A stretch of DNA of 64,000 nt from Actinomycetota bacterium (GCA_034190095.1 JAXHTL010000002.1:8374-72373), one strand, 5' to 3'; shown: positions 1,413-12,401, counted from the stretch's first letter. The notes: a model not told the origin generated them from the letters alone. A program made the numbers and translations.

Positions 1413-3818
1413 ATGACGCTGCAGACAATCGACTTCGATGACATCACCGACGCCCGGTTCGGCGGCAAGGCCGCAGGCCTGGCCGAGCTACGTCGCCTCG
1501 GGCTGTGCGTTCCGGCGGGATTCGTCATCGCCGACGCGACCACCGACGGCGCCCTGGATGCCGCAGCCGAGCGGTTCGCCCACATGGCGGCCAACGGGGC
1601 GACGCCGGTGGCGGTCCGATCCTCAGCCGTCGGCGAAGACGGCGATGACCATTCCTTCGCCGGCCAGTACGACACCGTGCTGGGCGTCGACACCGCCGAG
1701 GGCTTCACCGCCGCCGTCCGAAGGTGCGCCGAATCGGTGGGTTCGCAGCGGGCCTCGTCCTACAGCGCAGACCGCCCGGCCACGATGAACATCGTCGTCC
1801 AGCAGATGGTCGATGCGCGCGCCGCCGGCGTGGTGTTCACCGCGGACCCCGCCAGCGGACGGCGCGACCTGATGGTCATCGACGCGATCGCCGGGCTCGG
1901 GGAAGCGCTCGTCGACGGTTGCGCCTCCCCCGACCACATCGTGCTCGACGCCGACGGCAGCCCGGTGATCGAGGAGATCGGCGCGCCACCGGTGCTGAAC
2001 CCGCAGGAGGTCACCGAGATCCGCTCCGGTGCGTTGCGCGCCGCACAGCACTGGGCCAAGCCCATGGATCTGGAATGGGCGATCGACCGATCCGGGAGGC
2101 TGTGGTGGCTGCAGGCCCGGCCCATCACTACCCTTCCCGCGGACCTCAACGAGATGGACTCTCCGCCGGCCGGAGACACCCACGTCTACACCCGGTGCAA
2201 CATCGGCGAGATGATGCCCGGTGCGTTCTGCCCGCTCACCGCGTCGGTATCCGGCCATGCCATCGACTATGCGATGCAGATGACCCAGGTGGTGGCGCGC
2301 GCGCAGCCGAGCTACGAAAAGCCCTGGCTGCAGGTCGGGTACTTCTACGGCCACATGTTCCTGAACATGACCGAGGGGACGGCGCTGAGCTCGGGCATCC
2401 TGGGCAACTCGCTCGAACAGTTCTCCATGTCGATCTGCGGACGGGTGATCGACGAGCTGGAGCCCAAACCACCGAAACCGTTCGGGCGCAAGCTCGTCAA
2501 CACGGTCCGGCTCACCTCGCACGCGCTGTCCGCGGGTCCGGCGATCCGCCGCTTGGGACGCCAGATCAGCGGTTACCGAGTTCCGGACGGTGACGATCCC
2601 CGGCTGGTCCTCGAGCAGCTCGAGGCCGGTGTCGAGCTGTACTGCGACGTCACCCTGACCCATGTGCGCTCGTCGTCGCGCGCGGCGGTGGCGGCCAACA
2701 TCCTCGAAAGCGTCGTGATCAGGCAGGCGGTCAAGCAGGGCCGCAGCGAGGACGACGGCCGGGCCGAGGCGATGAAGCTCATGGCCGGGGCCGCCGACGT
2801 CGAAAGCGCGATGATGGTCGGCGAGCTGCACTCCGTGGTCCGCGCCATCGCCGCCGACGGCGCGGTCGCCGAGCAGTTCCGTTCGGCCCGACCCGATGTC
2901 GCGGTCACCGACCTGCAGGCGGCCGACCACCCCGCCGGTGCGGCACTGCGACGGTTCCTGGCCCGGCACGGCCACCGCGGGTACCGCGAGCTGTGCATGC
3001 GCGACCCTTCGTGGGCCCAGGACCCTGCCGGGCTGGGCTCGATGATGCAGGTCATACTCGGCGCCACAGAGAACCCTGTCGATCCGGCCAACCCCGACGA
3101 CCCTGCCGGGCCCGCCGGACGCGGGTCCGGCCACGCTCAGGCCGACTCCTCCGCGCTGAGGTTGCTGGCCCGGCTGGCGCAGGGCGGCGCGCGCGGGCGC
3201 GAGGAGACGAAGTCCAAGATGGCGTTGATGGCCCATGCGCTCAAGCGGGGCTATCGGCATCTCGGCGAGGTGCTGACCCGCTCCGGCCGGCTCCCCGACG
3301 CCGACCTGGTCTTCTTCTTCGACCGTGGCGAGCTTGCCCGCATCGTCGGCGACGGTGACACCACAGCGTTGGTGGGCCGCGCGGTGCGCCGCCGCGAGGC
3401 GCTGGCGTTCCAGGACGCCCTCGAGTTCGACGACGTCTCGGTCGGTAGGCCCACCCCCGTGATCGCGCCGCCGCCGGCCGCGTTCACCGACGATCAGATC
3501 GTCGGCCGGCCGGCCAGCCGTGGAACCGTGGAAGGTACGGTTCGCGTCGCGAAGTCGATCCAGGACGCCCGGCAGGTGCAGCGCGGGGAGATCCTGGTCG
3601 CACCGGTCACCGATGTCGGATGGACGCCGTATTTCACCGTGATCGCCGCTCTGGTGACCGATATCGGCAGTTCGGTGTCACACGGCGCGGTGGTGGCGCG
3701 CGAATACGGCCTGCCGTGTGTGGTCAACACGCTGGTGGCCACCCAGGTGCTCCGGACCGGCGACCGGGTGCGGGTCGACGGCGACCGCGGCGTGATCACC
3801 CGCCTCGACCGGGCCTGA
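1413..3818 (+). CDS. PEP-utilising enzyme of the PEP synthase / antibiotic (rifamycin) phosphotransferase-like family
   Basis: 801 aa. N-terminal PPDK_N ATP-grasp blocks ('FGGKAAGLAELRRLGLCVPAGFVI', 'VAVRSSAVGEDG', 'SFAGQYDTVLGV'). Long middle domain. C-terminal swivel phospho-His domain ('GSSVSHGAVVAREYGLPCVVN'). Confidence 0.85.
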   Translation: MTLQTIDFDDITDARFGGKAAGLAELRRLGLCVPAGFVIADATTDGALDAAAERFAHMAANGATPVAVRSSAVGEDGDDHSFAGQYDTVLGVDTAEGFTAAVRRCAESVGSQRASSYSADRPATMNIVVQQMVDARAAGVVFTADPASGRRDLMVIDAIAGLGEALVDGCASPDHIVLDADGSPVIEEIGAPPVLNPQEVTEIRSGALRAAQHWAKPMDLEWAIDRSGRLWWLQARPITTLPADLNEMDSPPAGDTHVYTRCNIGEMMPGAFCPLTASVSGHAIDYAMQMTQVVARAQPSYEKPWLQVGYFYGHMFLNMTEGTALSSGILGNSLEQFSMSICGRVIDELEPKPPKPFGRKLVNTVRLTSHALSAGPAIRRLGRQISGYRVPDGDDPRLVLEQLEAGVELYCDVTLTHVRSSSRAAVAANILESVVIRQAVKQGRSEDDGRAEAMKLMAGAADVESAMMVGELHSVVRAIAADGAVAEQFRSARPDVAVTDLQAADHPAGAALRRFLARHGHRGYRELCMRDPSWAQDPAGLGSMMQVILGATENPVDPANPDDPAGPAGRGSGHAQADSSALRLLARLAQGGARGREETKSKMALMAHALKRGYRHLGEVLTRSGRLPDADLVFFFDRGELARIVGDGDTTALVGRAVRRREALAFQDALEFDDVSVGRPTPVIAPPPAAFTDDQIVGRPASRGTVEGTVRVAKSIQDARQVQRGEILVAPVTDVGWTPYFTVIAALVTDIGSSVSHGAVVAREYGLPCVVNTLVATQVLRTGDRVRVDGDRGVITRLDRA

Positions 3819-3830
3819 ACGCCGGCGAAG

Positions 3831-5492
3831 CTAGGCGCCGTCGGCTCGCCCCCGCTCACCCGGGCGGGCCGACTCCGCGCGCGTCGGGTCGTCTCCGGCC
3901 TCGGCTTCCGGCTCGTCCTCGCCCCGGCCCACCTGGTCCGCCAGTTCGAGCCCGGCGCCGGCGTAGACGTTGAACGCGATGTCGACCCCGTGGTCCTTGG
4001 CCCACTGGACCTCGTCGTCGTAGCGGGCGACGGCGGCCACCTGGCCGCTGAACCCGGACTCGCGCAGACACTCCAGCGCGGTGACGTTGGCACCGTGGCG
4101 CGGCATGGCCAGCACGGCGATGCGCACCGAGCCCGACCTGCGCATCCGGTTCCAGAAGTCCAGGTCGGTCGCGTCCCCCTCGATGACCCGCAACCCCTGC
4201 TCGGCGAGGCGCCCGATCCGCGGCCCGTCGTAGTCGACGCCGACCACCCGCAGCCCGTAGTGGTCGGTGAGACGCTGGTAGGCGGCGAACCCGACGCGCC
4301 CCATACCGATCACCACGACCTCGGCGTCACCGGCGTCGACGGGCCGTTCCTCGGGCTGCAGGTTGCGCTCGTCCTGGGCGGGCAACCGGGCGGCGATCTT
4401 CTCCACCATCAGGTGGCCGCGGCCGTTGACCAGGGCCGAGACGACGAAGCTCAACGCCACCGCGATCGACATCTCCACCAGCCAGGCTTCGGCCAGCAAT
4501 CCGACCGACACCCCGACCGACACCACGATCAGGCCGAACTCGGAGTAGTTCATCAGGCTCAGCCCGGCCAGTATCGCGGTGCGGTGCCGCAGCTTCATCA
4601 TCGACAGCAATGCCACATACCAGCCGGCCTTGAACGGCAGCAGCAGCACCATCAGCACGGCGACCGCGATGGTGGGCAGGTCTGGCAGCCCCGTCAGCCC
4701 GATCGACACGAAGAACCCCACCAGCAGCAGTTCCTTGATGTGGAACAGCGAGCGGGCCAGTTCCGAGGAGGCCGGGTGCGAGGCCAGCAGCACGCCGACG
4801 ATCAGCGCGCCGAGGTCGCCCTTGAGCCCGACCGCGGTGAACAGCGCATACCCGGGCACGAACGCCATCACGATGCCGAACAGCGACTGCATCTCGCCGT
4901 GGCCCAGCCGGCTCCAGATCCTGCGCAGGACCCGGGTCAGCGGCCACAGACCGACCAGCGCCAGCGCCCACGGGCTGGGCAGATAGCCGCTGGTGGCGGT
5001 CAGGAAGATCACCGCGATGATGTCCTGCATCACCAGGATGCCGATGGCGACACGCCCGTAGAGCGCGTGGGATTCGCCGCGCTCTTCGAGGACCTTGACC
5101 ACGAACACGGTGCTGGAGAATGACAACGCGAAGGCCAGCAGCGCGATGGTCTGCACGCTCTGCCCGACCAGCATGGCCACTCCGGCCACCGCGGCCAGCC
5201 AGAGCGCGATGCCGCCCAGCACCACACTGATGAGCATGTGCACGGAGGTGGTCAGCCACACCTCCCGTCGCAACAGGATCCGGACGTCGAGTTTGAGGCC
5301 GATCGCGAACAGCAGCAGGGTGACGCCCAGGTCTGCCAGCACGTCCAGCTGCGGAACCTCCTCGACGTTCAGGGCGTTGATGACGAACCCCGCGGCGAGG
5401 AACCCGACCAGCGGCGGCAACCGCAACGCCAGCGCGAGCCCGCCTAGACCGAACGTGACGACGAGATAGATGGCGACAACTTCCACGCGCAA
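3831..5492 (-). CDS. CPA2/Kef-type cation:proton antiporter with C-terminal TrkA-N (RCK) domain
   Basis: 553 aa. About 12 hydrophobic helices, then the Rossmann motif 'VVVIGMGRVGFAAYQRL'. Confidence 0.85.
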   Translation of the reverse strand: MRVEVVAIYLVVTFGLGGLALALRLPPLVGFLAAGFVINALNVEEVPQLDVLADLGVTLLLFAIGLKLDVRILLRREVWLTTSVHMLISVVLGGIALWLAAVAGVAMLVGQSVQTIALLAFALSFSSTVFVVKVLEERGESHALYGRVAIGILVMQDIIAVIFLTATSGYLPSPWALALVGLWPLTRVLRRIWSRLGHGEMQSLFGIVMAFVPGYALFTAVGLKGDLGALIVGVLLASHPASSELARSLFHIKELLLVGFFVSIGLTGLPDLPTIAVAVLMVLLLPFKAGWYVALLSMMKLRHRTAILAGLSLMNYSEFGLIVVSVGVSVGLLAEAWLVEMSIAVALSFVVSALVNGRGHLMVEKIAARLPAQDERNLQPEERPVDAGDAEVVVIGMGRVGFAAYQRLTDHYGLRVVGVDYDGPRIGRLAEQGLRVIEGDATDLDFWNRMRRSGSVRIAVLAMPRHGANVTALECLRESGFSGQVAAVARYDDEVQWAKDHGVDIAFNVYAGAGLELADQVGRGEDEPEAEAGDDPTRAESARPGERGRADGA

Positions 5493-5716
5493 TCCCCCCT
5501 GCCCTGTCGGGCGTAAACGGTCGCCGGCTCCGGCGGCGGTCCCGGTGTGTGATGGAGTCCTACAAGTATCGCGACAAACGCCGGAAATCTCTGCCGACCG
5601 CTTCCCCGACTCGGGTCCGGGGACGCCTGCGGAGGCGGCGCGGGCCGAATGGGGCTAGACTGCCACGATCGGCACTGGCGCCGAGCTGTTGTCGCCGGAT
5701 GCCGAGAAGAGCTCAA

Positions 5717-5959
5717 TTGTCTAGGCCTGTATACGAATTCGAGATCCGATGCGGTAGCTGCCACGCGCTCGTCGTGTTGTCCTGTCCCCCGGTCCGCGAA
5801 ACACCGCGTGACGAGGTCATCGCCCGGCGTCTGCTCAACGAGGTCCTCGTCGACCTGGGTTGGCTCCCCACCACGACCGGAGCCTTCTGTCGGCAGCACG
5901 CCGCTTCGGCGCGCAGGCGCTACCGGCGCCCGATGGGGCACCCGGGACGACGCACCTAG
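5717..5959 (+). CDS. possible small Cys-rich (zinc-ribbon-like) protein
   Basis: TTG at 5717 lies in the frame of track ORF 5549..5959. GC3-rich codons. Contains 'CGSC...C...FCRQH'. Fills an otherwise empty ~460-nt gap. No homology recognised. Confidence 0.3.
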   Translation: MSRPVYEFEIRCGSCHALVVLSCPPVRETPRDEVIARRLLNEVLVDLGWLPTTTGAFCRQHAASARRRYRRPMGHPGRRT

Positions 5960-6723
5960 GCGACATGGCCTTGCTGGCATTGTGTCCGCATCGGCGGCGC
6001 ATGGCTGAGCAGCGCCGCCAGATCCAGCCGGGGGGCGATCGCGCGCATCGCTGCCACCGCAGGCAGCGACAACCGCACGTCGACCACCATGGCACCCTTG
6101 CTGATCGGCTTGCGGCAGCTCAGCCCGACCCGGTCCCCGGCGCCCGCGCCGAGCTGTTCGTCGAATCGGGCGCGGACCGCGCTGAGTGTCAGTTCACCAC
6201 CCGAGGCCTGCCGGAACACCGGATCGAGCAGTGCGCGCACCTCGTCGGTGAGCGCCACCGCGTCGGCGAAGTACTCGTCGGGCCGTACGCCGGAGCAGGT
6301 GCCGTGCGCATACCACTCGTGGGTCGCCAGCGTCGCCGAGTCGGCCATCGTCGCCGGCAACTGCGCGCGCACCTCGGCGGACAGCGCGACCTGCGGCAAC
6401 CCGCCGGCTCCGCGGCGAACCCGCTCCGCGAGGGTCAGCGGCACGCCGCAGTACTGGTTCTCGGGCGGCTGCGGCCACAACCCGTGCAGGATCAGCGTGG
6501 GGCCGAGTCGGGCGATCTCACCGGAAGCACATGCCGGGCTCGACGGCTCGACTGCGCAGAAACCGGGCCCCCAGGTCACCACCAGCCAGCTCGAGGTCGT
6601 GCTGCGCGACACCAGGTTCGTGGACTCGCGGTCGAGGACCAGCAGGCTGAATGTGACCGCGGCCGCCACGACGGCGGCCAGAGCGGCCGAAATCGAGAAT
6701 ACTGCGACGTCACCGCGTTGCAT
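5956..6723 (-). CDS. RNase T2-family ribonuclease with N-terminal membrane/signal anchor
   Basis: 255 aa. RNase T2 active-site blocks CAS I 'LILHGLWPQ' and CAS II 'THEWYAHGTCSG'. N-terminal hydrophobic segment 'VAVFSISAALAAVVAAAVTFSLLVL'. Confidence 0.8.
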   Translation of the reverse strand: MQRGDVAVFSISAALAAVVAAAVTFSLLVLDRESTNLVSRSTTSSWLVVTWGPGFCAVEPSSPACASGEIARLGPTLILHGLWPQPPENQYCGVPLTLAERVRRGAGGLPQVALSAEVRAQLPATMADSATLATHEWYAHGTCSGVRPDEYFADAVALTDEVRALLDPVFRQASGGELTLSAVRARFDEQLGAGAGDRVGLSCRKPISKGAMVVDVRLSLPAVAAMRAIAPRLDLAALLSHAPPMRTQCQQGHVA

Positions 6724-6837
6724 GGGGCACCCTTCTACCAGGGCGGGAACGCCGGGTGCGCGTCGGCCCGCCTCGACGGTCAGCCTGCCACAGCACCGTC
6801 TCAGCGTTGAGCGATCGCCAGCGAAAGGTCCCGCGAG

Positions 6838-8937
6838 TTGCCGTCATCGGAACTGGTGAACGACATCGACCGGTGGCTGGATCGGACCGCGCGGCGCCGG
6901 AACCGCACGGTCTCGCTCTACGAGAGCCTGCTCACCGGAAAGATGTTCGCGTACTTCCGCTATCGGCTCCGGTATGCGCTGCTGCTGGACGGGACGACCT
7001 TCGTGCTGCACGTGGCCGAGTTTCTGATCATCCTCACCAGCCTCGGCGGGCTGGCGGCCTTCACCGTCATGGTCCTGCGGGTGGGCAGCCTCATCGTCAG
7101 CGGCGCCTGGTGGGGGCTGCTGGAGGTGATGCGGGAACGGCTCAGGACGTTCGCACTGTCCGGCGACCGGCAGGCGGCCGAGCGCGAGATCGGCAGCTGG
7201 CTGGTCCTGTCGATGATCGCGGCGGCCGGGGCGGCGCTGCTCGGCGCGGCGGTACTGCTGGCACTGCTTCCCCGGGAAGGCAATCCGGTCAGCCTGCTCT
7301 ACGCAGTGCTGATCATCATCGAGGTCGCCTTGCGAATGCCGGTGCGGGTGCTGCATTCCGGGATGTACGCCACCCGTCGCATCTATCGGCCGCTGTGGTC
7401 GCTGTTCGCGCCCAATGTCGCCCAACTGTTGGTCCTCGGCGTCGGTGTGCTCTTCTACCCCACCGCTGCAGTCGTCCTCGCGATCATCGTCGCCAACGCA
7501 CTGTCCATCTGGATCACCGTGCACTACACGCTGCGGCTCTACCGACTGACCGGCACATCGCTGAAAATCCCTGCCCCCCGGCATATCCGGTTCTCCCCTC
7601 CGGCGATCCCGCTTCGGCAGGGCGCCGAGGCGACACTGGCCGGCTTCGGATTGCGCCTCGACGCGGTGGTGGTGCTGCTGATCGCCGGGATCTACGGCAC
7701 GAATACCCGGGCCTTCGACCTGACGGCCGGAATGCAGGCGTGGCGCGAGATCGATGCATTCCAGTTCTTCTACCTGGTCCTGCCGCTGTTCCGCGGTGCA
7801 TACGAGGCCACCGTCGTCTTCTATTTCGACTTCGTCCGGCTGCGCCGGCTGGCGGCGCTGCGCGAGTACCGGGTGTGGTTCTTTCATCGGCTGCTGGCCG
7901 TCACCCCGGTGATCACCGCGTTCTTCTGGGCGCTGGCCGTCATGCTCGGACTGTTTGTGCTTCCGGGTATTCCGTTCAGCTTTCTGCTCGCGCTGCTGCC
8001 GCTGTTCGTCGTTCGCGGTCTGATCGGCACCTATCAGATCCGCCTGTTCGCCGAAGGCCGGTTCCGTGCACTCAACGCCACCATCGTCTTCTCGGCATTG
8101 CTGCTGGGGCTGGTGTGGCTGGACCCCGATCCCGCCTCCGACCTGGTCGAGATCACCGCCGCGATGATCACCCTGCTGATCGTGCACATCAATCTGCAGC
8201 ACCTGGCGGACCGAAAACCAGCCCAGCCCACCCAGCTCCCCCTGGGCGACTGGATCCGGGCTGTGCAGAACGAGACCGGTCCGGTGCGGGCCGGAACCAT
8301 CTCGGTACCGGAGTGGATTCCCTCCCGACAGCGTTATGCAGCCATCGAGGTGGTGCGCCAAACCCTCGACGGCACCGGGTCTCTGGCGTTCTGTTCGGCG
8401 ACGTCGCTGATCTTCTACGAACGCGACCAGCAGGTCGACGCCCGGCGGGCACCGCACCTGCTGGTGCAGGACATGACCGGGGGCGCGGCGAATCGCGGCT
8501 ACTACTGGCAGGATCCGGCACCGAACGGGCCGGCCGCACTCGAGCGCATCGTCGGCCAGGGATGGCTGCGCCCCGCCCACGGCGCAGCGCAGGCGCCGCA
8601 GAGCCCGGAGATCTTGCGCACCGAGTTCCTGCGCATCTTTCCCGACGGTTTCGTCGCCAACGTGAAAACCCGCTCCGGAGCCCGGGATATGCGCAAACTG
8701 GACCCCGACCTGGTGGTGGCGATCCTGCCCGCCGCGATCCGCAGCCTCGACGACGACGCACTGGTTGCCGAGGTGGCCGGGCGCTGGCTGTCACCGATCT
8801 TTCACCGCAACAAGGTGCAGATGGTGTTTCTGCTTCCCGTGCAGCCGGATCCCGAGCTGTTTCGCCGCTGGCTGCACACATTGCAGAGCTGGCGACTGGG
8901 TGGCTGGCCGGCGCAGGACGTGAACCATGCCCGCTGA
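6838..8937 (+). CDS. polytopic membrane protein with ~230-aa soluble C-terminal domain (unknown family), partner of the downstream RT
   Basis: 699 aa from TTG with GAAAGG upstream. About 10-12 helix-length hydrophobic segments up to about aa 465, then a hydrophilic domain with no recognised motif. Its stop lies 11 nt inside the RT gene. Alternative frames over this region are Arg/Pro/Gly junk. Confidence 0.8.
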   Translation: MPSSELVNDIDRWLDRTARRRNRTVSLYESLLTGKMFAYFRYRLRYALLLDGTTFVLHVAEFLIILTSLGGLAAFTVMVLRVGSLIVSGAWWGLLEVMRERLRTFALSGDRQAAEREIGSWLVLSMIAAAGAALLGAAVLLALLPREGNPVSLLYAVLIIIEVALRMPVRVLHSGMYATRRIYRPLWSLFAPNVAQLLVLGVGVLFYPTAAVVLAIIVANALSIWITVHYTLRLYRLTGTSLKIPAPRHIRFSPPAIPLRQGAEATLAGFGLRLDAVVVLLIAGIYGTNTRAFDLTAGMQAWREIDAFQFFYLVLPLFRGAYEATVVFYFDFVRLRRLAALREYRVWFFHRLLAVTPVITAFFWALAVMLGLFVLPGIPFSFLLALLPLFVVRGLIGTYQIRLFAEGRFRALNATIVFSALLLGLVWLDPDPASDLVEITAAMITLLIVHINLQHLADRKPAQPTQLPLGDWIRAVQNETGPVRAGTISVPEWIPSRQRYAAIEVVRQTLDGTGSLAFCSATSLIFYERDQQVDARRAPHLLVQDMTGGAANRGYYWQDPAPNGPAALERIVGQGWLRPAHGAAQAPQSPEILRTEFLRIFPDGFVANVKTRSGARDMRKLDPDLVVAILPAAIRSLDDDALVAEVAGRWLSPIFHRNKVQMVFLLPVQPDPELFRRWLHTLQSWRLGGWPAQDVNHAR

Positions 8938-10261
8938 ACCGGTCGACATCGCGGCGCGGATGGTCGACCCGAAGACCTTCGAAGAGGCCATTCTGCGGAT
9001 CTTCACCAAGCGCAGCGAGCGTGGCATGGGCTTCGCGCAGGCCGCCGAGGGCGTGAGCTACTTCGCCGCGGCGACCGACCGGCAGGCGCTGGCGCGCGCG
9101 ATCGCGTCCGGCATCGCCGACGGGAGCTACCGACCGGAGCCGGTCGACCTCTGGTTCCTCGAGGCCGGCGGTAAGCGCCGCGCCGCTCACAAACCGGGGT
9201 TCATCGATCACGTCGTCGGTTCGGCACTGTTCGCGCTGCTGTCGCACAACGCCCGCTGCCATGGTCTGCCGGGGGTGTACTCCTACCTGCCCGGGCTGAC
9301 GAACGTGGCGGCGATGCGGGCTTTCGCCGGGTACCTCCGCGCTCATCGGGCACGGGTCGGCCCGTCGGTCGGGCCGGTCTACGTCATGCAGTCCGACTTC
9401 GAGAAGTACGGTGACCATCTGCCGGTGGGCCCGGACGCCGCACTGTGGCAGACCCTGCGCCGGGTGGCCTCGCTGGGCAGCACCACCGGCGACATCGACG
9501 ACCACGTCTGGGATCTCATCACCGCGCTGGTACGGCCCGTGGTGCGCGATTCCGACGGCACACACTTCACCCGGGTCAACGGCATCGCCATGGGCACTCC
9601 GCTGGTCCCGGTACTGGGCAACCTGGCGGCGGTCCCGATGGATGAGGCGATCATGGGCATCGACGGCGTCTTCTACGCCCGCTACAACGACGATTTCCTC
9701 GTCGCCCACGGCGAGCTGGCCGCGCTGCACGAGGCGGACCGGCGGATCGACGCACTCACCGACGCCTTGGGCGTCCGCCGCGCTCTGCACAAGGAGGTGC
9801 GCACCGCGTTGAGCCCGCGCGGGATCGGCGGCGCGGCGGATCCGGCGTACCGGGGGCGGGACCGCATCGATTGCCTGGGCTTGTCCGTCTCCGCCGTGGG
9901 CACCGTGAGCCTGGGGCCCACCCGCCTGCGACGGTTCATGAGGCGGATCGCGACACGCATCGACGGCGCCGCCCCTGCGCTGACACCGCTGCCTGTCGAG
10001 GAGCGGGCACGTCACCTGGTGGCAGCGACCAACGTGATGCTCGACCCGGCGAGTCCGTTTGCGGTTTCCGGGTTGTCGGCGCTACTCGAGGCCACCACCG
10101 ACCGGGGCACACTCAAAGACGTGGACTATCGCATCGCCCGCAAGATCGTTCAGGCAGCCACCCGCGCCCCGGGTGTTCGCGGCTTCCGGACGCTGCCGCC
10201 ATCGTCGTTGTACCGCCAGATGGGACTGACCTCGCTGGTGCGGGTGCGCAACTTGCGGTGA
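8927..10261 (+). CDS. stand-alone reverse transcriptase (RNA-directed DNA polymerase), unclassified group
   Basis: 444 aa. Ordered RT motifs: 1-2 'YRPEPVDLWFLEAGGKRRAAHKPGFIDHVVGSALFALL', 2a 'YSYLPGLTNVAAMRAF', A 'VYVMQSDFEKYGDHL', B 'NGIAMGTPLVPVLGNLAAVPMDEAI', C 'FYARYNDDFLVA' (YNDD at nt 9683-9694), D 'LGVRRALHKEV', E 'IDCLGLSV'. A ~120-aa helical tail follows. AGGA lies 9 nt upstream of the ATG. Confidence 0.85.
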   Translation: MPAEPVDIAARMVDPKTFEEAILRIFTKRSERGMGFAQAAEGVSYFAAATDRQALARAIASGIADGSYRPEPVDLWFLEAGGKRRAAHKPGFIDHVVGSALFALLSHNARCHGLPGVYSYLPGLTNVAAMRAFAGYLRAHRARVGPSVGPVYVMQSDFEKYGDHLPVGPDAALWQTLRRVASLGSTTGDIDDHVWDLITALVRPVVRDSDGTHFTRVNGIAMGTPLVPVLGNLAAVPMDEAIMGIDGVFYARYNDDFLVAHGELAALHEADRRIDALTDALGVRRALHKEVRTALSPRGIGGAADPAYRGRDRIDCLGLSVSAVGTVSLGPTRLRRFMRRIATRIDGAAPALTPLPVEERARHLVAATNVMLDPASPFAVSGLSALLEATTDRGTLKDVDYRIARKIVQAATRAPGVRGFRTLPPSSLYRQMGLTSLVRVRNLR

Positions 10262-10332
10262 GCGCCCGCCGCGGCCTAGCCTCGTGAGCAGGCGCGGATC
10301 CCGCATTCGTGCGGTTCAAGCGAGAGGTCACA

Positions 10333-10370
10333 GAGGTTGCGGCTTTCGGCCTCTCATTTTTGCCGTTTTT
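10333..10370 (+). terminator. intrinsic terminator-like hairpin with T-tracts downstream of the RT operon
   Basis: GAGGTTG (10333-10339) / loop CGGCTTT / CGGCCTC (10347-10353) gives a 7-bp stem including 2 G-U pairs, followed by TCATTTTTGCCGTTTTTG. The orientation fits the + strand only. Confidence 0.5.
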
Positions 10371-10409
10371 GCCCGCGCCTTTCCATCGTCTCCATCGTCC
10401 TCGGCGGTG

Positions 10410-12401
10410 TCAGGACTGGCTCTGGTTCCATTCGATCCAGCCCACCCCGGTCCGGCCGTCGGCAGCCGTGACGGTCGCCCACGCCCGCGGGAACCGGCTC
10501 AGCCGACCGTCCGGCGAGGTCAGCAGGACAGGGCCGTGGCCGTGCACGTCGATGCTCACCGCGACGCCGCCGGGTTCGTAGGTCAACTCGGTGCCGACCG
10601 GTAAGCCGTTGTCGGCGAATGTCTCCCGGGCGGTGACCTGGTGGAGTTCGACCAGCGGCTCGCCCGGGTTCTGCAGATATCCCACCGACAGCGGGTCCAT
10701 CCCGGGTATCCGGATCTCGACCCCGTGGACGTGGGTTCCGTCGTCGAGATGCAGCGCGCTCCACACCCAGTCCATCGACCACCAGTCGCGCGGCGCCCAG
10801 GAATGGTCACGCTGTCCGGCGACCGCAGACAGCTCGAAGGTCCGCCCGTCGGTGGTGACGGATCCACTGACCTGGCAGGGAATCTCGTACCGCGGAGACA
10901 TCCGGTACTGGTAGGGAGTGCCGACCGTGGTCCAGGTCAGGTCCACGTCGACCTCGACCCTCCGGCCCGACTCGCCGCGCAGGATCGCCGAGGGGTCGTC
11001 GTAGGCCTCGCCGCGGCCGCGCAGGGTGACGCCGAAGGTGCGCAGCGGCTCGCGGACGGTCATCCCGAATACGGCATCAGCGCTTCGCACCTCGGTGTGG
11101 TCGTCGGGCAGGGCCACCTCGAAGTCGAGCACCGCGACCGTGGGCATGTCCGGTCCGCACAGCACGGCGTTGATCCACGCGTGGCCCTGGTTGGGTATCA
11201 GACCGAGCCGGAACCAGCCCCCGAAGCCCTGGGCGGGGTCGGCGAAATCGAAGTACCAGCTCTCGCTCCACAGCGGCTCATCGTCGGGGGTGTGGCGCCC
11301 CTCGTCGTCGGCGCCGGGCTGCAACGGCTCCGGTGCAGGGGGCGGCAGGATGGCCAGCGCGTCGGTGTCGATCACATGCTGGCAGTGCCGCGCGATCATG
11401 GCCATGAACATCTCGTCGCCGCGCTCGGTGCGTTCGACCAGCATCGGCGACACGATCGCCATCAGCACACCGAAGAAGCTCTGGTGACGCACGCCCTCGC
11501 GGACATCGTCGAGGCTGACGCCGGAATCGGGCCCGAGCGCATCGGTGTAGGCGCTCAGCAGCGCGTCGTAGTGCTCGCGCCGCGCCGCGATCGGCAGCGC
11601 GCAGCCGAGGAAGTAGGCGACGTCGGTGAACGCCGGACCCCAGGTGACGGTCTGCCAGTCGACGACGGTCAGCGGCCGGTCCGCGCCCGGCTCGCCGAAC
11701 AGCATGTTGTCCAACCGGTAGTCGCCGTGAATCAGGCCACGCGGTCCGTCCCGGTCGGCCTCGGCGGCCATGTAGGCGTCGAAACTCGCCACCAGCCGCT
11801 CGCAGACGTGGCGGTGCTCATCGCTGACCTGGTCGCGGTACCGGTCGATGAATCCGGCGTAGAGGGTGGTGATCAGGCCCTGGTTCACCGGCGATCCGCC
11901 GCCCAGCCGGTCGGCGGCGGCCAGCGTGCCGTCGTTGAGCAGCGGCCCGTGCACGAGGGCGAGCTGGGTCAGCGCCAGGTGCGCCTGCTCGGCTGTCGCG
12001 CCGCGGACCTCGTCGCCGACGACGGCCGGCGCGGCGTCGCCGAGCAGCAGGTCGAACGCCCCGGTCGACGGGTCGTAGGCGGCGTGGTGGCACGGCGCGA
12101 TCGGGCCGCCGAGGCCGGGGGCGATGTCGGTGTAGAAACCCACCTCGCGCTGGTAGAGCCCCATCGCCAGGCCGGTCTGCCGACTGCTGGTGTCGGCCGC
12201 GGCGACCTTGAGCACGACAGAGCCGGGACCGGACTCGCCGTCGGCGTACTGCAGGCCGACGCGGTAGCACTCACTCATCTGGCCGGTGCCGATGCGGTCG
12301 ACGGTGAACCCGGATACTCCGTGACCGAGCACCTCGGTGAGCCAGTCGGCCGTCAGATCGGTGGGACGTTCGAGCAGGCGTGGACGCAGCGACGAGGACA
12401 C
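10410..12401 (-). CDS. APH/EcKL-type phosphotransferase fused to a C-terminal beta-rich domain of unknown function
   Basis: 663 aa. Kinase catalytic loop 'IHGDYRLDNMLF' and 'VVDWQT'. The C-terminal ~300 aa align with the stand-alone protein at 27809-28948 (shared 'W-S-[DE]-x-x-YF', 'EPL' and 'DGR...G.RD' blocks). Confidence 0.85.
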   Translation of the reverse strand: MSSSLRPRLLERPTDLTADWLTEVLGHGVSGFTVDRIGTGQMSECYRVGLQYADGESGPGSVVLKVAAADTSSRQTGLAMGLYQREVGFYTDIAPGLGGPIAPCHHAAYDPSTGAFDLLLGDAAPAVVGDEVRGATAEQAHLALTQLALVHGPLLNDGTLAAADRLGGGSPVNQGLITTLYAGFIDRYRDQVSDEHRHVCERLVASFDAYMAAEADRDGPRGLIHGDYRLDNMLFGEPGADRPLTVVDWQTVTWGPAFTDVAYFLGCALPIAARREHYDALLSAYTDALGPDSGVSLDDVREGVRHQSFFGVLMAIVSPMLVERTERGDEMFMAMIARHCQHVIDTDALAILPPPAPEPLQPGADDEGRHTPDDEPLWSESWYFDFADPAQGFGGWFRLGLIPNQGHAWINAVLCGPDMPTVAVLDFEVALPDDHTEVRSADAVFGMTVREPLRTFGVTLRGRGEAYDDPSAILRGESGRRVEVDVDLTWTTVGTPYQYRMSPRYEIPCQVSGSVTTDGRTFELSAVAGQRDHSWAPRDWWSMDWVWSALHLDDGTHVHGVEIRIPGMDPLSVGYLQNPGEPLVELHQVTARETFADNGLPVGTELTYEPGGVAVSIDVHGHGPVLLTSPDGRLSRFPRAWATVTAADGRTGVGWIEWNQSQS

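Follow-up and report, generated by a model that had tools for sequence, protein, structure and literature searches.

Class 2 UG reverse transcriptases (RTs), among them DRT2, DRT9 and DRT10 (UG17), use an adjacent structured non-coding RNA (ncRNA) as scaffold and as iteratively read template (PMC12483538, PMC12632851, PMC9226505). DRT9 makes protein-primed poly-dA from a conserved poly-U tract (PMC12483538, PMC12489045), and in DRT10 a stem sets the 5' boundary of an A-B-A' template and a SLATT protein is the membrane effector (PMC12632851, PMC12483538). The stretch of 64,000 nucleotides (nt) from Actinomycetota bacterium analysed here (GCA_034190095.1, JAXHTL010000002.1:8374-72373), hereafter called the window, contains a stand-alone RT gene which overlaps the gene of a polytopic membrane protein. 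In an earlier reading of the same DNA, hereafter called the original prediction, these two genes were taken for a discrete operon; they are part of a four-part module consisting of an RNase T2, the membrane protein, the RT and an ncRNA. The locus is regarded, with middling confidence, as a member of a widespread, undescribed RT-ncRNA system, a DRT9/DRT10-like machine coupled to a membrane protein, for which a conflict or stress role of the abortive-infection type is proposed. The architecture is that of Class 2 UG systems, with a stand-alone RT without extra enzymatic domains and an adjacent conserved structured ncRNA.

The RT and its membrane partner

The protein-coding genes of the module, and the region which separates two of them, are located in the window as follows (protein lengths in amino acids, aa).

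5956-6723, minus strand: RNase T2-family gene, 255 aa, divergent from the membrane gene; Pfam Ribonuclease_T2 (PF00445)
6724-6855, no strand: divergent intergenic region between the RNase T2 and membrane genes; presumed bidirectional promoter region
6856-8937, plus strand: polytopic membrane protein gene; the listed open reading frame (ORF) begins with TTG at 6838, but translation probably starts at GTG 6856
8927-10261, plus strand: stand-alone RT gene, 444 aa; motif A Asp157 at nt 9395-9397, motif C Y-N-D-D (253-256) at nt 9683-9694

Both ORFs of the original prediction, of 699 aa (6838-8937, plus strand) and 444 aa (8927-10261, plus strand), are present as described, including the RT ATG at 8927, which sits 11 nt inside the membrane ORF ending at 8937 (junction sequence ccATGcccgcTGA). 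The membrane gene probably starts at GTG 6856, because the consensus N-terminus of its homologues is MNDIDRW. Synteny was counted in 80 species-level genome loci, the denominators being those loci which reach far enough. In 58/77 orthologous mycobacterial loci the overlap is likewise 11 nt, and the two genes are translationally coupled. The proposed check of their co-occurrence gave a clear answer: in all testable Mycobacteriaceae loci (77/77) the membrane gene immediately precedes the RT, and the two proteins form a functional pair under tight conservation.

The RT motifs are genuine. Motif A D157 and motif C Y253-N-D-D256 are invariant in 25 orthologues (66-76 % identity), and D157, D255 and D256 remain invariant in 61 relatives with only 23-48 % identity, so that the catalytic Asp residues are conserved in orthologues and distant relatives alike. 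An AlphaFold2 (AF2) model built on the alignment (pLDDT 84.7, pTM 0.75) has complete fingers, palm and thumb, the C-terminal ~115 aa forming a helical thumb-like region, and the protein has an RT-only architecture with no extra enzymatic domains. In NCBI records some orthologues (M. arseniciresistens, M. palauense) carry the name 'RNA-dependent RNA polymerase family protein', which is probably a domain-architecture label; motif A (QSDFEKYGD) did not discriminate between the sugar selectivity of an RT and that of an RNA polymerase.

The original prediction could place the RT in no described class, and it fits none in PADLOC, NCBIfam or the UG scheme. The closest structural match of the RT model in Foldseek was DRT9 (9vma, 9nlx and others; E 3e-13, TM-score 0.60-0.63), with DRT9, GsI-IIC (group II), DRT2 and G2L4 all similarly distant (E 3e-13 to 2e-10, TM-score ~0.6, 13-18 % identity) and the RT of a diversity-generating retroelement (DGR) only a distant match (8ub7, 2e-9). 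In PADLOC the window RT scored best with the generic RT model (43 bits), followed by UG4 (41, partial), Drt9 (39, 1e-10) and UG26 (24.6). For the best member of the RT family the order was UG26 (1.3e-32), UG17 (5e-27) and Drt9 (2.5e-26), with several groups scoring close together; all 61 family members match the UG26 profile, the best-scoring named PADLOC profile for the wider family. A profile of the family compared with PDB sequences gave Cas6-RT-Cas1 (6e-24), GsI-IIC (6e-24) and DRT9 (2e-22). The RT is thus about equidistant from UG26, DRT9, UG17, group II and CRISPR RTs. None of its UG/DRT profile scores reaches membership level and it fell outside every named RT class tested, the UG/Abi groups UG1-UG42, DRT1-9 and AbiA/K/P2 among them; the NCBIfam models Drt2 and Drt3a scored 18 bits (cut-off 390) and 16 bits (cut-off 200). 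UG4 gave the best match among the named PADLOC groups but was rejected as an assignment, because the 41 bits come from a partial alignment and UG4 is a group of proteobacterial plasmids, associated there with fimbrial genes.

In agreement with the original prediction, identity with a group II intron, retron or DGR was rejected on profile scores, Rfam and a repeat search. The group II model TIGR04416 scored 33.8 bits against a cut-off of 300, and no Intron_gpII or other Rfam family was found at E<=1 in 5400-10800. The retron RT model NF038233 scored 23 bits against a cut-off of 235, and the PADLOC retron RT models gave E>=9e-4. No direct repeat >29 nt occurs in 5400-11000, so there are no repeats of the template/variable (TR/VR) type. 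These results also bear on the idea that the RT is the remnant of a decayed group II intron, DGR or other retroelement. TIGR04416 is nonetheless the best NCBIfam match and GsI-IIC ranks high in both the structural and the sequence comparisons, but the low TIGR04416 score, the lack of intron RNA or TR/VR-type repeats in the regions searched and the strong purifying conservation of the RT with fixed partners across phyla make such an origin hardly credible.

The membrane partner had been described as having about 10-12 hydrophobic helices and a ~230-aa C-terminal domain with no recognised motif, which agrees with its AF2 model (pLDDT 74, pTM 0.74), in which 12 long helices are followed by an alpha/beta domain of ~230 aa. 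The helices, residues ~30-460 (nt ~6925-8217), have the fold of the MOP superfamily, and the alpha/beta domain occupies residues ~465-690 (nt ~8230-8907). The top 46 Foldseek matches in the PDB are all MATE, Wzx(E) or MurJ proteins (E down to 5e-6, TM-score against the target 0.55-0.68, probability 1.00), and the assignment to the MOP fold (12-14 transmembrane helices in two six-helix bundles) rests on the AF2 model with its pLDDT of 74. At the sequence level, the protein has no match to Pfam MatE, Polysacc_synt or MurJ or to NCBIfam at E<=1, nor any other Pfam, NCBIfam or PADLOC match, and profile searches with the C-terminal domain against PDB and Pfam gave nothing (best E 0.68). The protein is predicted to have both termini inside, which would place the C-terminal domain in the cytoplasm, on the same side as the RT, since Arg/Lys-rich loops alternate between the AF2 helices as expected from the positive-inside rule.

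The RT and the membrane protein each have >300 full-length homologues in a large protein collection. Many charged residues are invariant in the transmembrane part of the membrane protein, and its homologue in Thiorhodovibrio can be aligned with the window protein over the entire length (34 % identity, E 8e-110). One homologue is annotated by JGI as 'O-antigen/teichoic acid export membrane protein'. Membrane partners of this type have not been reported for RTs.

The structured RNA next to the RT

Downstream of the RT stop codon the following elements were defined.

10290-10380, plus strand: conserved structured ncRNA, 91 nt (covariation, blastn, RNAalifold, covariance model)
10290-10297 with 10373-10380, plus strand: P1, outer helix (RNAalifold)
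10301-10305 with 10310-10314, plus strand: P2, hairpin with UUCG cap (RNAalifold); a variable linker lies between P2 and P3
10322-10329 with 10348-10355, plus strand: P3a, outer stem (RNAalifold)
10333-10337 with 10342-10346, plus strand: P3b, 5-bp inner stem with UGCG cap, which follows an invariant ACAGAG
10356-10372, plus strand: J3/1, single-stranded U-rich bipartite segment, AUUUUUGCCGUUUUUGC, which precedes the 3' half of P1
10277-10282, plus strand: candidate ncRNA promoter, -10-type hexamer TAGCCT (mycobacterial TANNNT), 7 nt upstream of P1

The 148-nt spacer past the RT stop, used as blastn query, matched ~79/80 loci over ~90 nt with 73-93 % identity, whatever gene follows, and the RNA is conserved at the DNA level at least as well as the module proteins. 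Its invariant core was found in 79/79 mycobacterial loci with downstream sequence, 56-146 nt past the RT stop. In the alignment of the 79 distinct sequences, folded with RNAalifold, 95.9 % of the cells were paired, compared with 41-61 % in slid controls, and double compensatory changes affected 12/20 pairs (101 cells), compared with 2-5 pairs in the controls; 0/500 shuffles reached any observed measure. All three helices covary, and a strand test based on G·U pairs favours the RT (plus) strand. Rfam contained no match for the RNA, and the covariance model found one copy only in the window.

The RNA is also recognised outside mycobacteria. The covariance model built from the mycobacterial RNA (R1) matched Thiorhodovibrio (7e-10), contigs of a Pseudomonadota metagenome-assembled genome (MAG; 1e-11) and the proteobacterial locus L087 (6e-11), with compensatory changes in every helix in these matches. 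At L087 the RNA (2839-2949) lies 1 kb upstream, between two RNase T2 genes, and is still on the RT strand. This module is rearranged, the two RNase T2 genes standing in tandem (1899-3771) with the ncRNA between them on the opposite strand. The model found no match in the most distant loci with the membrane gene before the RT (L084, L086). A distant set of 80 metagenomic loci (RT 24-36 % identity), in which the RT mostly precedes the membrane gene, shows mostly only the P3 hairpin; in 50/78 loci its core (CAGAGAC[U/C]GCGGUCUU) precedes the RT by 42-315 nt on the RT strand, compared with 4/78 loci for the opposite strand, and the inner stem of the hairpin covaries family-wide. The RNA thus takes three positions, 3' of the RT, between the T2 genes (L087) and 5' of the RT (metagenomic branch), always on the RT strand and always within the module.

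The original prediction had given the gene pair its own terminator. The hairpin with T-run at 10332-10354, which a pattern scan also flagged, is helix P3 of the conserved RNA and unremarkable as a terminator (1 found, 2.3 expected in shuffles). That the RNA is a mere cis-regulatory 3' element (terminator, stability or attenuation element) unrelated to RT catalysis, with the RT acting on other substrates or template-free like Class 1 Abi RTs, is consistent with its position directly 3' of the RT in mycobacteria, with the order of hairpin and U-run, which fits the terminator pattern, and with a minimum free energy z-score of only -3.0. This is considered very unlikely, as P1 encloses the U-run, pairs beyond it and covaries, the loop nucleotides are invariant and a -10-like hexamer precedes the ncRNA in the clade of the window. 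Nor would a terminator relocate repeatedly together with the module, as the RNA has done to a site 1 kb upstream between two T2 genes oriented opposite to it at L087 and, as a hairpin, to 42-315 nt upstream of the RT in the RT-first branch.

The hexamer TANNNT occurs 5-9 nt upstream of P1 in 26/79 loci, as opposed to 0/79 for an equally long control region, the loci being related to each other, and hints at a dedicated ncRNA promoter. In loci of the slow-grower type (e.g. L023 8878-8890, L032, L057) a semi-conserved GCGGTTCAATCC is found 10-15 nt before P1, which is replaced by TANNNT in the window clade; this motif resembles a T-loop and, in part, the P3b loop region UGCGGCUUUCG.

P1 and the two hairpins it encloses form a closing-helix layout of 91 nt without a retron RNA match in Rfam. 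In a retron-like interpretation P1 would correspond to the a1/a2 inverted repeat and the hairpins P2 and P3 to the stems of msr and msd, respectively; a 2'-OH of a conserved G would prime the RT, which would copy J3/1 and P3 once, and the resulting short hairpin msDNA would restrain the membrane protein or the RNase. The closing helix around two hairpins does lie directly beside the RT, retrons with membrane effectors are known (PMC8632793) and retron RT structures are among the Foldseek matches (E ~1e-7). The weak retron profile scores given above, an RNA much shorter than typical msr-msd RNAs, the long C-terminal region of the RT and its greater closeness to DRT9, group II and CRISPR RTs nevertheless make this interpretation unlikely.

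J3/1 in mycobacteria consists of two U-runs split by a G/C spacer (UUUUUGC-CG-UUUUUGC in the window). Its longest internal repeat is on average 5.1 nt, compared with 3.6 nt in shuffles, and for the window sequence 0/500 shuffles reached the observed value, the sequences being mutually related. A telomerase- or DRT10-like A-B-A' repeat after P3 was rejected as a family-wide property: it has support only in the mycobacterial branch, was not significant in the divergent metagenomic RNAs (n=33), and a control region gave the same result.

RNase T2, distribution and possible roles

The divergent upstream region which the original prediction assigned to the pair exists (6724-6855), but instead of delimiting a two-gene unit it leads into a third conserved gene. 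The product of 5956-6723 (minus strand) scored 37.3 bits with PF00445 (gathering score 26) and is a member of the RNase T2 family, with the active-site segments CAS I (H80-G-L-W-P, nt 6472-6486) and CAS II (H135-E-W-x-x-H140-G-x-C143, nt 6295-6321). H80, E136, H140 and six Cys are invariant in 11 sequences from two phyla, and from these residues the enzyme is judged to be catalytically intact. A hydrophobic anchor or signal is present at aa 8-30, and an anchor was found in every copy compared. Because of the anchor and the six invariant Cys, and drawing on general knowledge of T2 RNases, the protein is likely to be an active enzyme located outside the cytoplasm. It could be a sequestered executioner, or a processor of exported material.

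The RNase T2 gene adjoins the pair in 72/73 testable mycobacterial loci and is also found beside the module in four proteobacterial loci (L081, L082, L083, L087). The sole mycobacterial locus with sufficient upstream sequence but no detected RNase T2 homologue beside the membrane gene is L029, from a MAG of an uncultured Mycobacterium sp. In Thiorhodovibrio winogradskyi (L081, CP121472.1) a 2H-phosphoesterase gene (LigT/2'-5' RNA ligase-like, 3071-3775) lies directly downstream of the RNase T2 gene, and this adjacency suggests a link between the module and 2',3'-cyclic-phosphate chemistry at RNA ends in this species. The intergenic region between the RNase T2 and membrane genes is 18-231 nt long across loci and conserved only in close relatives, and no sigma-70 consensus match was found in 6724-6855. 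An ncRNA in this region was rejected as a candidate, since these lengths leave no room for it and conservation does not extend beyond close relatives.

Homologues with >54 % identity are essentially all from Mycobacterium/Mycolicibacterium, including M. marinum, M. decipiens, M. spongiae, M. gordonae and M. szulgai. The module is present in >100 Mycobacteriaceae species-level genomes, in gene contexts which fall into clade-specific classes. No module cluster from the M. tuberculosis complex turned up in the RT homologue searches, while M. decipiens and M. marinum carry the module. The nearest non-mycobacterial RTs (45-49 % identity) are from Roseibium, Thiorhodovibrio winogradskyi and a Pseudomonadota MAG, and the identity across phyla argues for horizontal transfer between Actinomycetota and Pseudomonadota at some point. 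Thiorhodovibrio, the MAG and L087 share one layout, with RNase T2 divergent from a ~695-aa protein followed by the RT. HMMER searches of 1.84 billion representative proteins found 187 RT clusters (50 %-identity representatives) at E<1e-30, full length and with 25-35 % identity, of which the sampled members carry the same membrane partner. In the distant metagenomic set, 66/67 loci which are long enough carry a membrane homologue beside the RT; there the gene order is reversed, with the RT first, and RNase T2 is absent (0/25). Since both gene orders keep the partner and the hairpin while RNase T2 is absent from the distant loci, the conserved core is ncRNA, RT and MOP-like protein, and RNase T2 is an addition in one branch.

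In the mechanism proposed for the DRT9/DRT10-like machine, the cytoplasmic RT would bind the adjacent 91-nt RNA, the likely handle being the invariant ACAGAG-stem-UGCG hairpin (P3). As DRT2, DRT9 and DRT10 do, it would copy a short single-stranded part of the ncRNA as a DNA template. The likely template is the U-rich bipartite J3/1 between P3 and P1, which would yield an A-rich, possibly repetitive cDNA, with P3 acting as template boundary; A-rich DNA synthesis is proposed because the Class 2 UG logic is shared and the U-run repeat of J3/1 lies directly 3' of the conserved hairpin. The RT-RNA particle or its product may then act on, or be handled (sensed) by, the MOP-fold protein through the cytoplasmic domain. 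In the mycobacterial and proteobacterial sub-branch the outward-facing RNase T2 would be an added accessory or effector. The most likely role of such a machine would be a conflict or stress response of the abortive-infection type. What the analysis shows is the four parts and how they are conserved together, the fold of the RNA, an intact catalytic centre in both RT and RNase and the MOP fold of the partner; RNA binding, templating, product, membrane coupling and defence role are what we infer.

The original prediction of an RT with a membrane effector in a defence-like module stands as far as the tightly conserved pair is concerned. The partner, in contrast, has the fold of a 12-helix MOP transporter or flippase and is not a typical small pore-forming effector, and the defence role is hypothetical. 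'RT plus membrane effector' is a reasonable analogy, DRT10 consisting of RT, ncRNA and SLATT, rather than a finding.

Several observations weigh against the proposed DRT9/DRT10-like machine with its conflict role. No effector known to accompany an RT resembles the 12-helix transporter fold. In the divergent branch the direct repeats (A-B-A') do not reach significance (3.09 compared with 2.88; 1/33 at p<=0.05), the U-richness of J3/1 is not universal (L087: CGCUUUAGUUAAC), and P3 with its U-run could alternatively serve as an intrinsic terminator. The mycobacterial neighbours are of housekeeping type (Tgt, WS/DGAT, P450, GluQRS, saccharopine dehydrogenase, ATP-dependent DNA ligase, ClpB and radical-SAM proteins), and only 2/148 neighbour-cluster representatives, covering 392/597 flanking ORFs, match any PADLOC profile at 1e-10. 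No RT homologue was found by tblastn in 72,556 plasmids or 50,697 phage genomes, and IMG/VR viral contigs gave only three weak partial RT matches. The module is apparently inherited with the chromosome within Mycobacteriaceae, and this inheritance, its neighbours and its absence from these collections are together atypical for defence systems. Enrichment in defence islands or on mobile elements, the usual anti-phage feature, was thus not found, which lowers the defence reading without excluding it. The GC content is host-like, in line with the host-like codon usage for which the original prediction called the locus no obvious recent island; the module is neither on an obvious mobile element nor in a defence island.

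This absence of a defence-island signal keeps a physiological, non-immune role alive. A non-defence function in the cell envelope, in which the product of RT and ncRNA would be exported or sensed by the MOP-type transporter and RNase T2, with the 2H phosphoesterase in Thiorhodovibrio, would process RNA outside the membrane, is a tentative but serious alternative. Possible roles are production of extracellular nucleic acid or matrix, nucleotide salvage and 2',3'-cyclic nucleotide signalling, the RT being domesticated like G2L4, which acts in DNA repair. The chromosomal housekeeping context, the absence from mobile-element collections and the occurrence in >100 species-level genomes with contexts kept within clades all favour it, as do the genuine transporter fold with many invariant polar residues in its membrane domain, the RNase T2 anchor and six invariant Cys, which make a location outside the cytoplasm likely, and the 2H phosphoesterase gene beside the T2 gene. 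To our knowledge, however, no member of the MOP family moves nucleic acids. The lack of M. tuberculosis complex clusters in the homologue searches moreover implies that the module is dispensable, the cross-phylum identity of 45-49 % suggests horizontal spread, and the characterised bacterial stand-alone RTs with a dedicated ncRNA all act in defence, retroelements excepted (PMC9226505, PMC12632851). A more specific form of this idea, a non-immune RT-ncRNA machine of a new class, is rather doubtful: the domesticated RT and its private 91-nt RNA would make a defined nucleic-acid polymer which is delivered to, gated by or exported through the MOP-type transporter, and RNase T2, facing the periplasm, would complete the process. 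If true, bacteria would have a pathway which connects reverse transcription with the cell envelope, present in numerous mycobacteria, both environmental and pathogenic (M. marinum, M. szulgai, M. gordonae), in proteobacteria and in at least 187 related RT clusters.

No description of an RT with RNase T2 or of an RT with a flippase was found in the literature searched, which was not exhaustive, and the RT family itself turned up neither in these papers nor in any class library searched. Defence-associated or domesticated bacterial RTs have recently given unprecedented biochemistry, namely de novo gene synthesis, poly-dA and telomerase-like repeats. If the module acts in defence, it would introduce an effector of a new type and be the first native RT-ncRNA system of mycobacteria, relevant to phage therapy of non-tuberculous mycobacteria; if not, it would be a rare instance in which normal physiology at the envelope makes use of reverse transcription. 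A compact RNA with its RT is also a candidate DNA-writing tool.

The outer flanks of the module in the window (KefB-type antiporter, kinase-like protein, epimerase) are common only to the 3-4 closest relatives. The gene at 3831-5492 (minus strand) codes for a KefB-like Na+/H+ exchanger with a TrkA-N domain, which is 90 % identical in the nearest relative compared with 75-78 % for the module proteins, and the module therefore evolves faster than this housekeeping neighbour. Convergent with the RT, 10410-12401 (minus strand) codes for a 663-aa protein with an EcKL/APH-type kinase domain, DUF7065 and DUF7064, probably unrelated to the module because it is conserved beside it only in the 4 closest relatives. 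In one context class (class A, ~25 loci, e.g. L033, L040, L071) the module has Tgt (queuine tRNA-ribosyltransferase) on one side and, at a distance of a few genes, glutamyl-Q tRNA(Asp) synthetase on the other. The two genes both belong to queuosine-related tRNA modification, and their flanking position may be a coincidence.

Comparison with known systems

The membrane protein shares with the MOP superfamily (MATE, Wzx, MurJ) the twelve-helix fold over residues ~30-460 (TM-score against the target 0.55-0.68), but its sequence identity with these proteins is 11-16 %, and it differs from them in the extra 230-aa cytoplasmic domain predicted at its C-terminus and in its obligatory pairing with an RT.

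Among RTs, the family is by profile as close to the CRISPR RT Cas6-RT-Cas1 and to GsI-IIC as it is to DRT9, and G2L4 offers a precedent for a chromosomal, domesticated, non-defence RT. Unlike G2L4, group II and CRISPR RTs, the module RT has no maturase or endonuclease (En) domains, no intron RNA and no cas genes nearby. Its motif C is YNDD/YGDD where G2L4 has YIDD (PMC4244168), and it has a dedicated ncRNA and a membrane partner.

UG26, an uncharacterised Class 2 UG/Abi group (PMC9226505), provides the best named profile for the family and likewise has a stand-alone RT without extra domains. The window RT, however, reaches only 24.6 bits with this profile, and UG26 has an occasional Vsr-like endonuclease neighbour, with no membrane protein or RNase T2 reported and no ncRNA described.

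DRT9 (UG28) is the best structural match of the module RT, and the module ncRNA also has a conserved single-stranded U-rich tract. The identity is 13-14 %, the module RNA is shorter and of another architecture, and the U-tract is not universal in the module family. The module RT further lacks the conserved C-terminal Tyr pair (its C-terminus is ...LYRQMGLTSLVRVRNLR, with a Tyr which is not invariant), and DRT9 has no obligatory membrane partner, only sometimes a SLATT protein.

DRT10 (UG17; PMC12632851, bioRxiv 10.64898/2026.06.29.735271) differs in that the module RT is not a member of UG17, scoring far below true members, and in that its SLATT protein has 2-3 transmembrane helices, whereas the module partner combines the 12-helix MOP fold with the predicted 230-aa cytoplasmic domain. 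The mycobacterial module also adds RNase T2, has its ncRNA 3' of the RT and lacks a defence-island context. The likeness lies in the operon, which unites a stand-alone RT (~450 aa) with a structured ncRNA beside it and with a membrane protein, in the UG17 profile match of the family (5e-27), and in a stem directly 5' of a short single-stranded segment, the position which the template boundary takes in DRT10.

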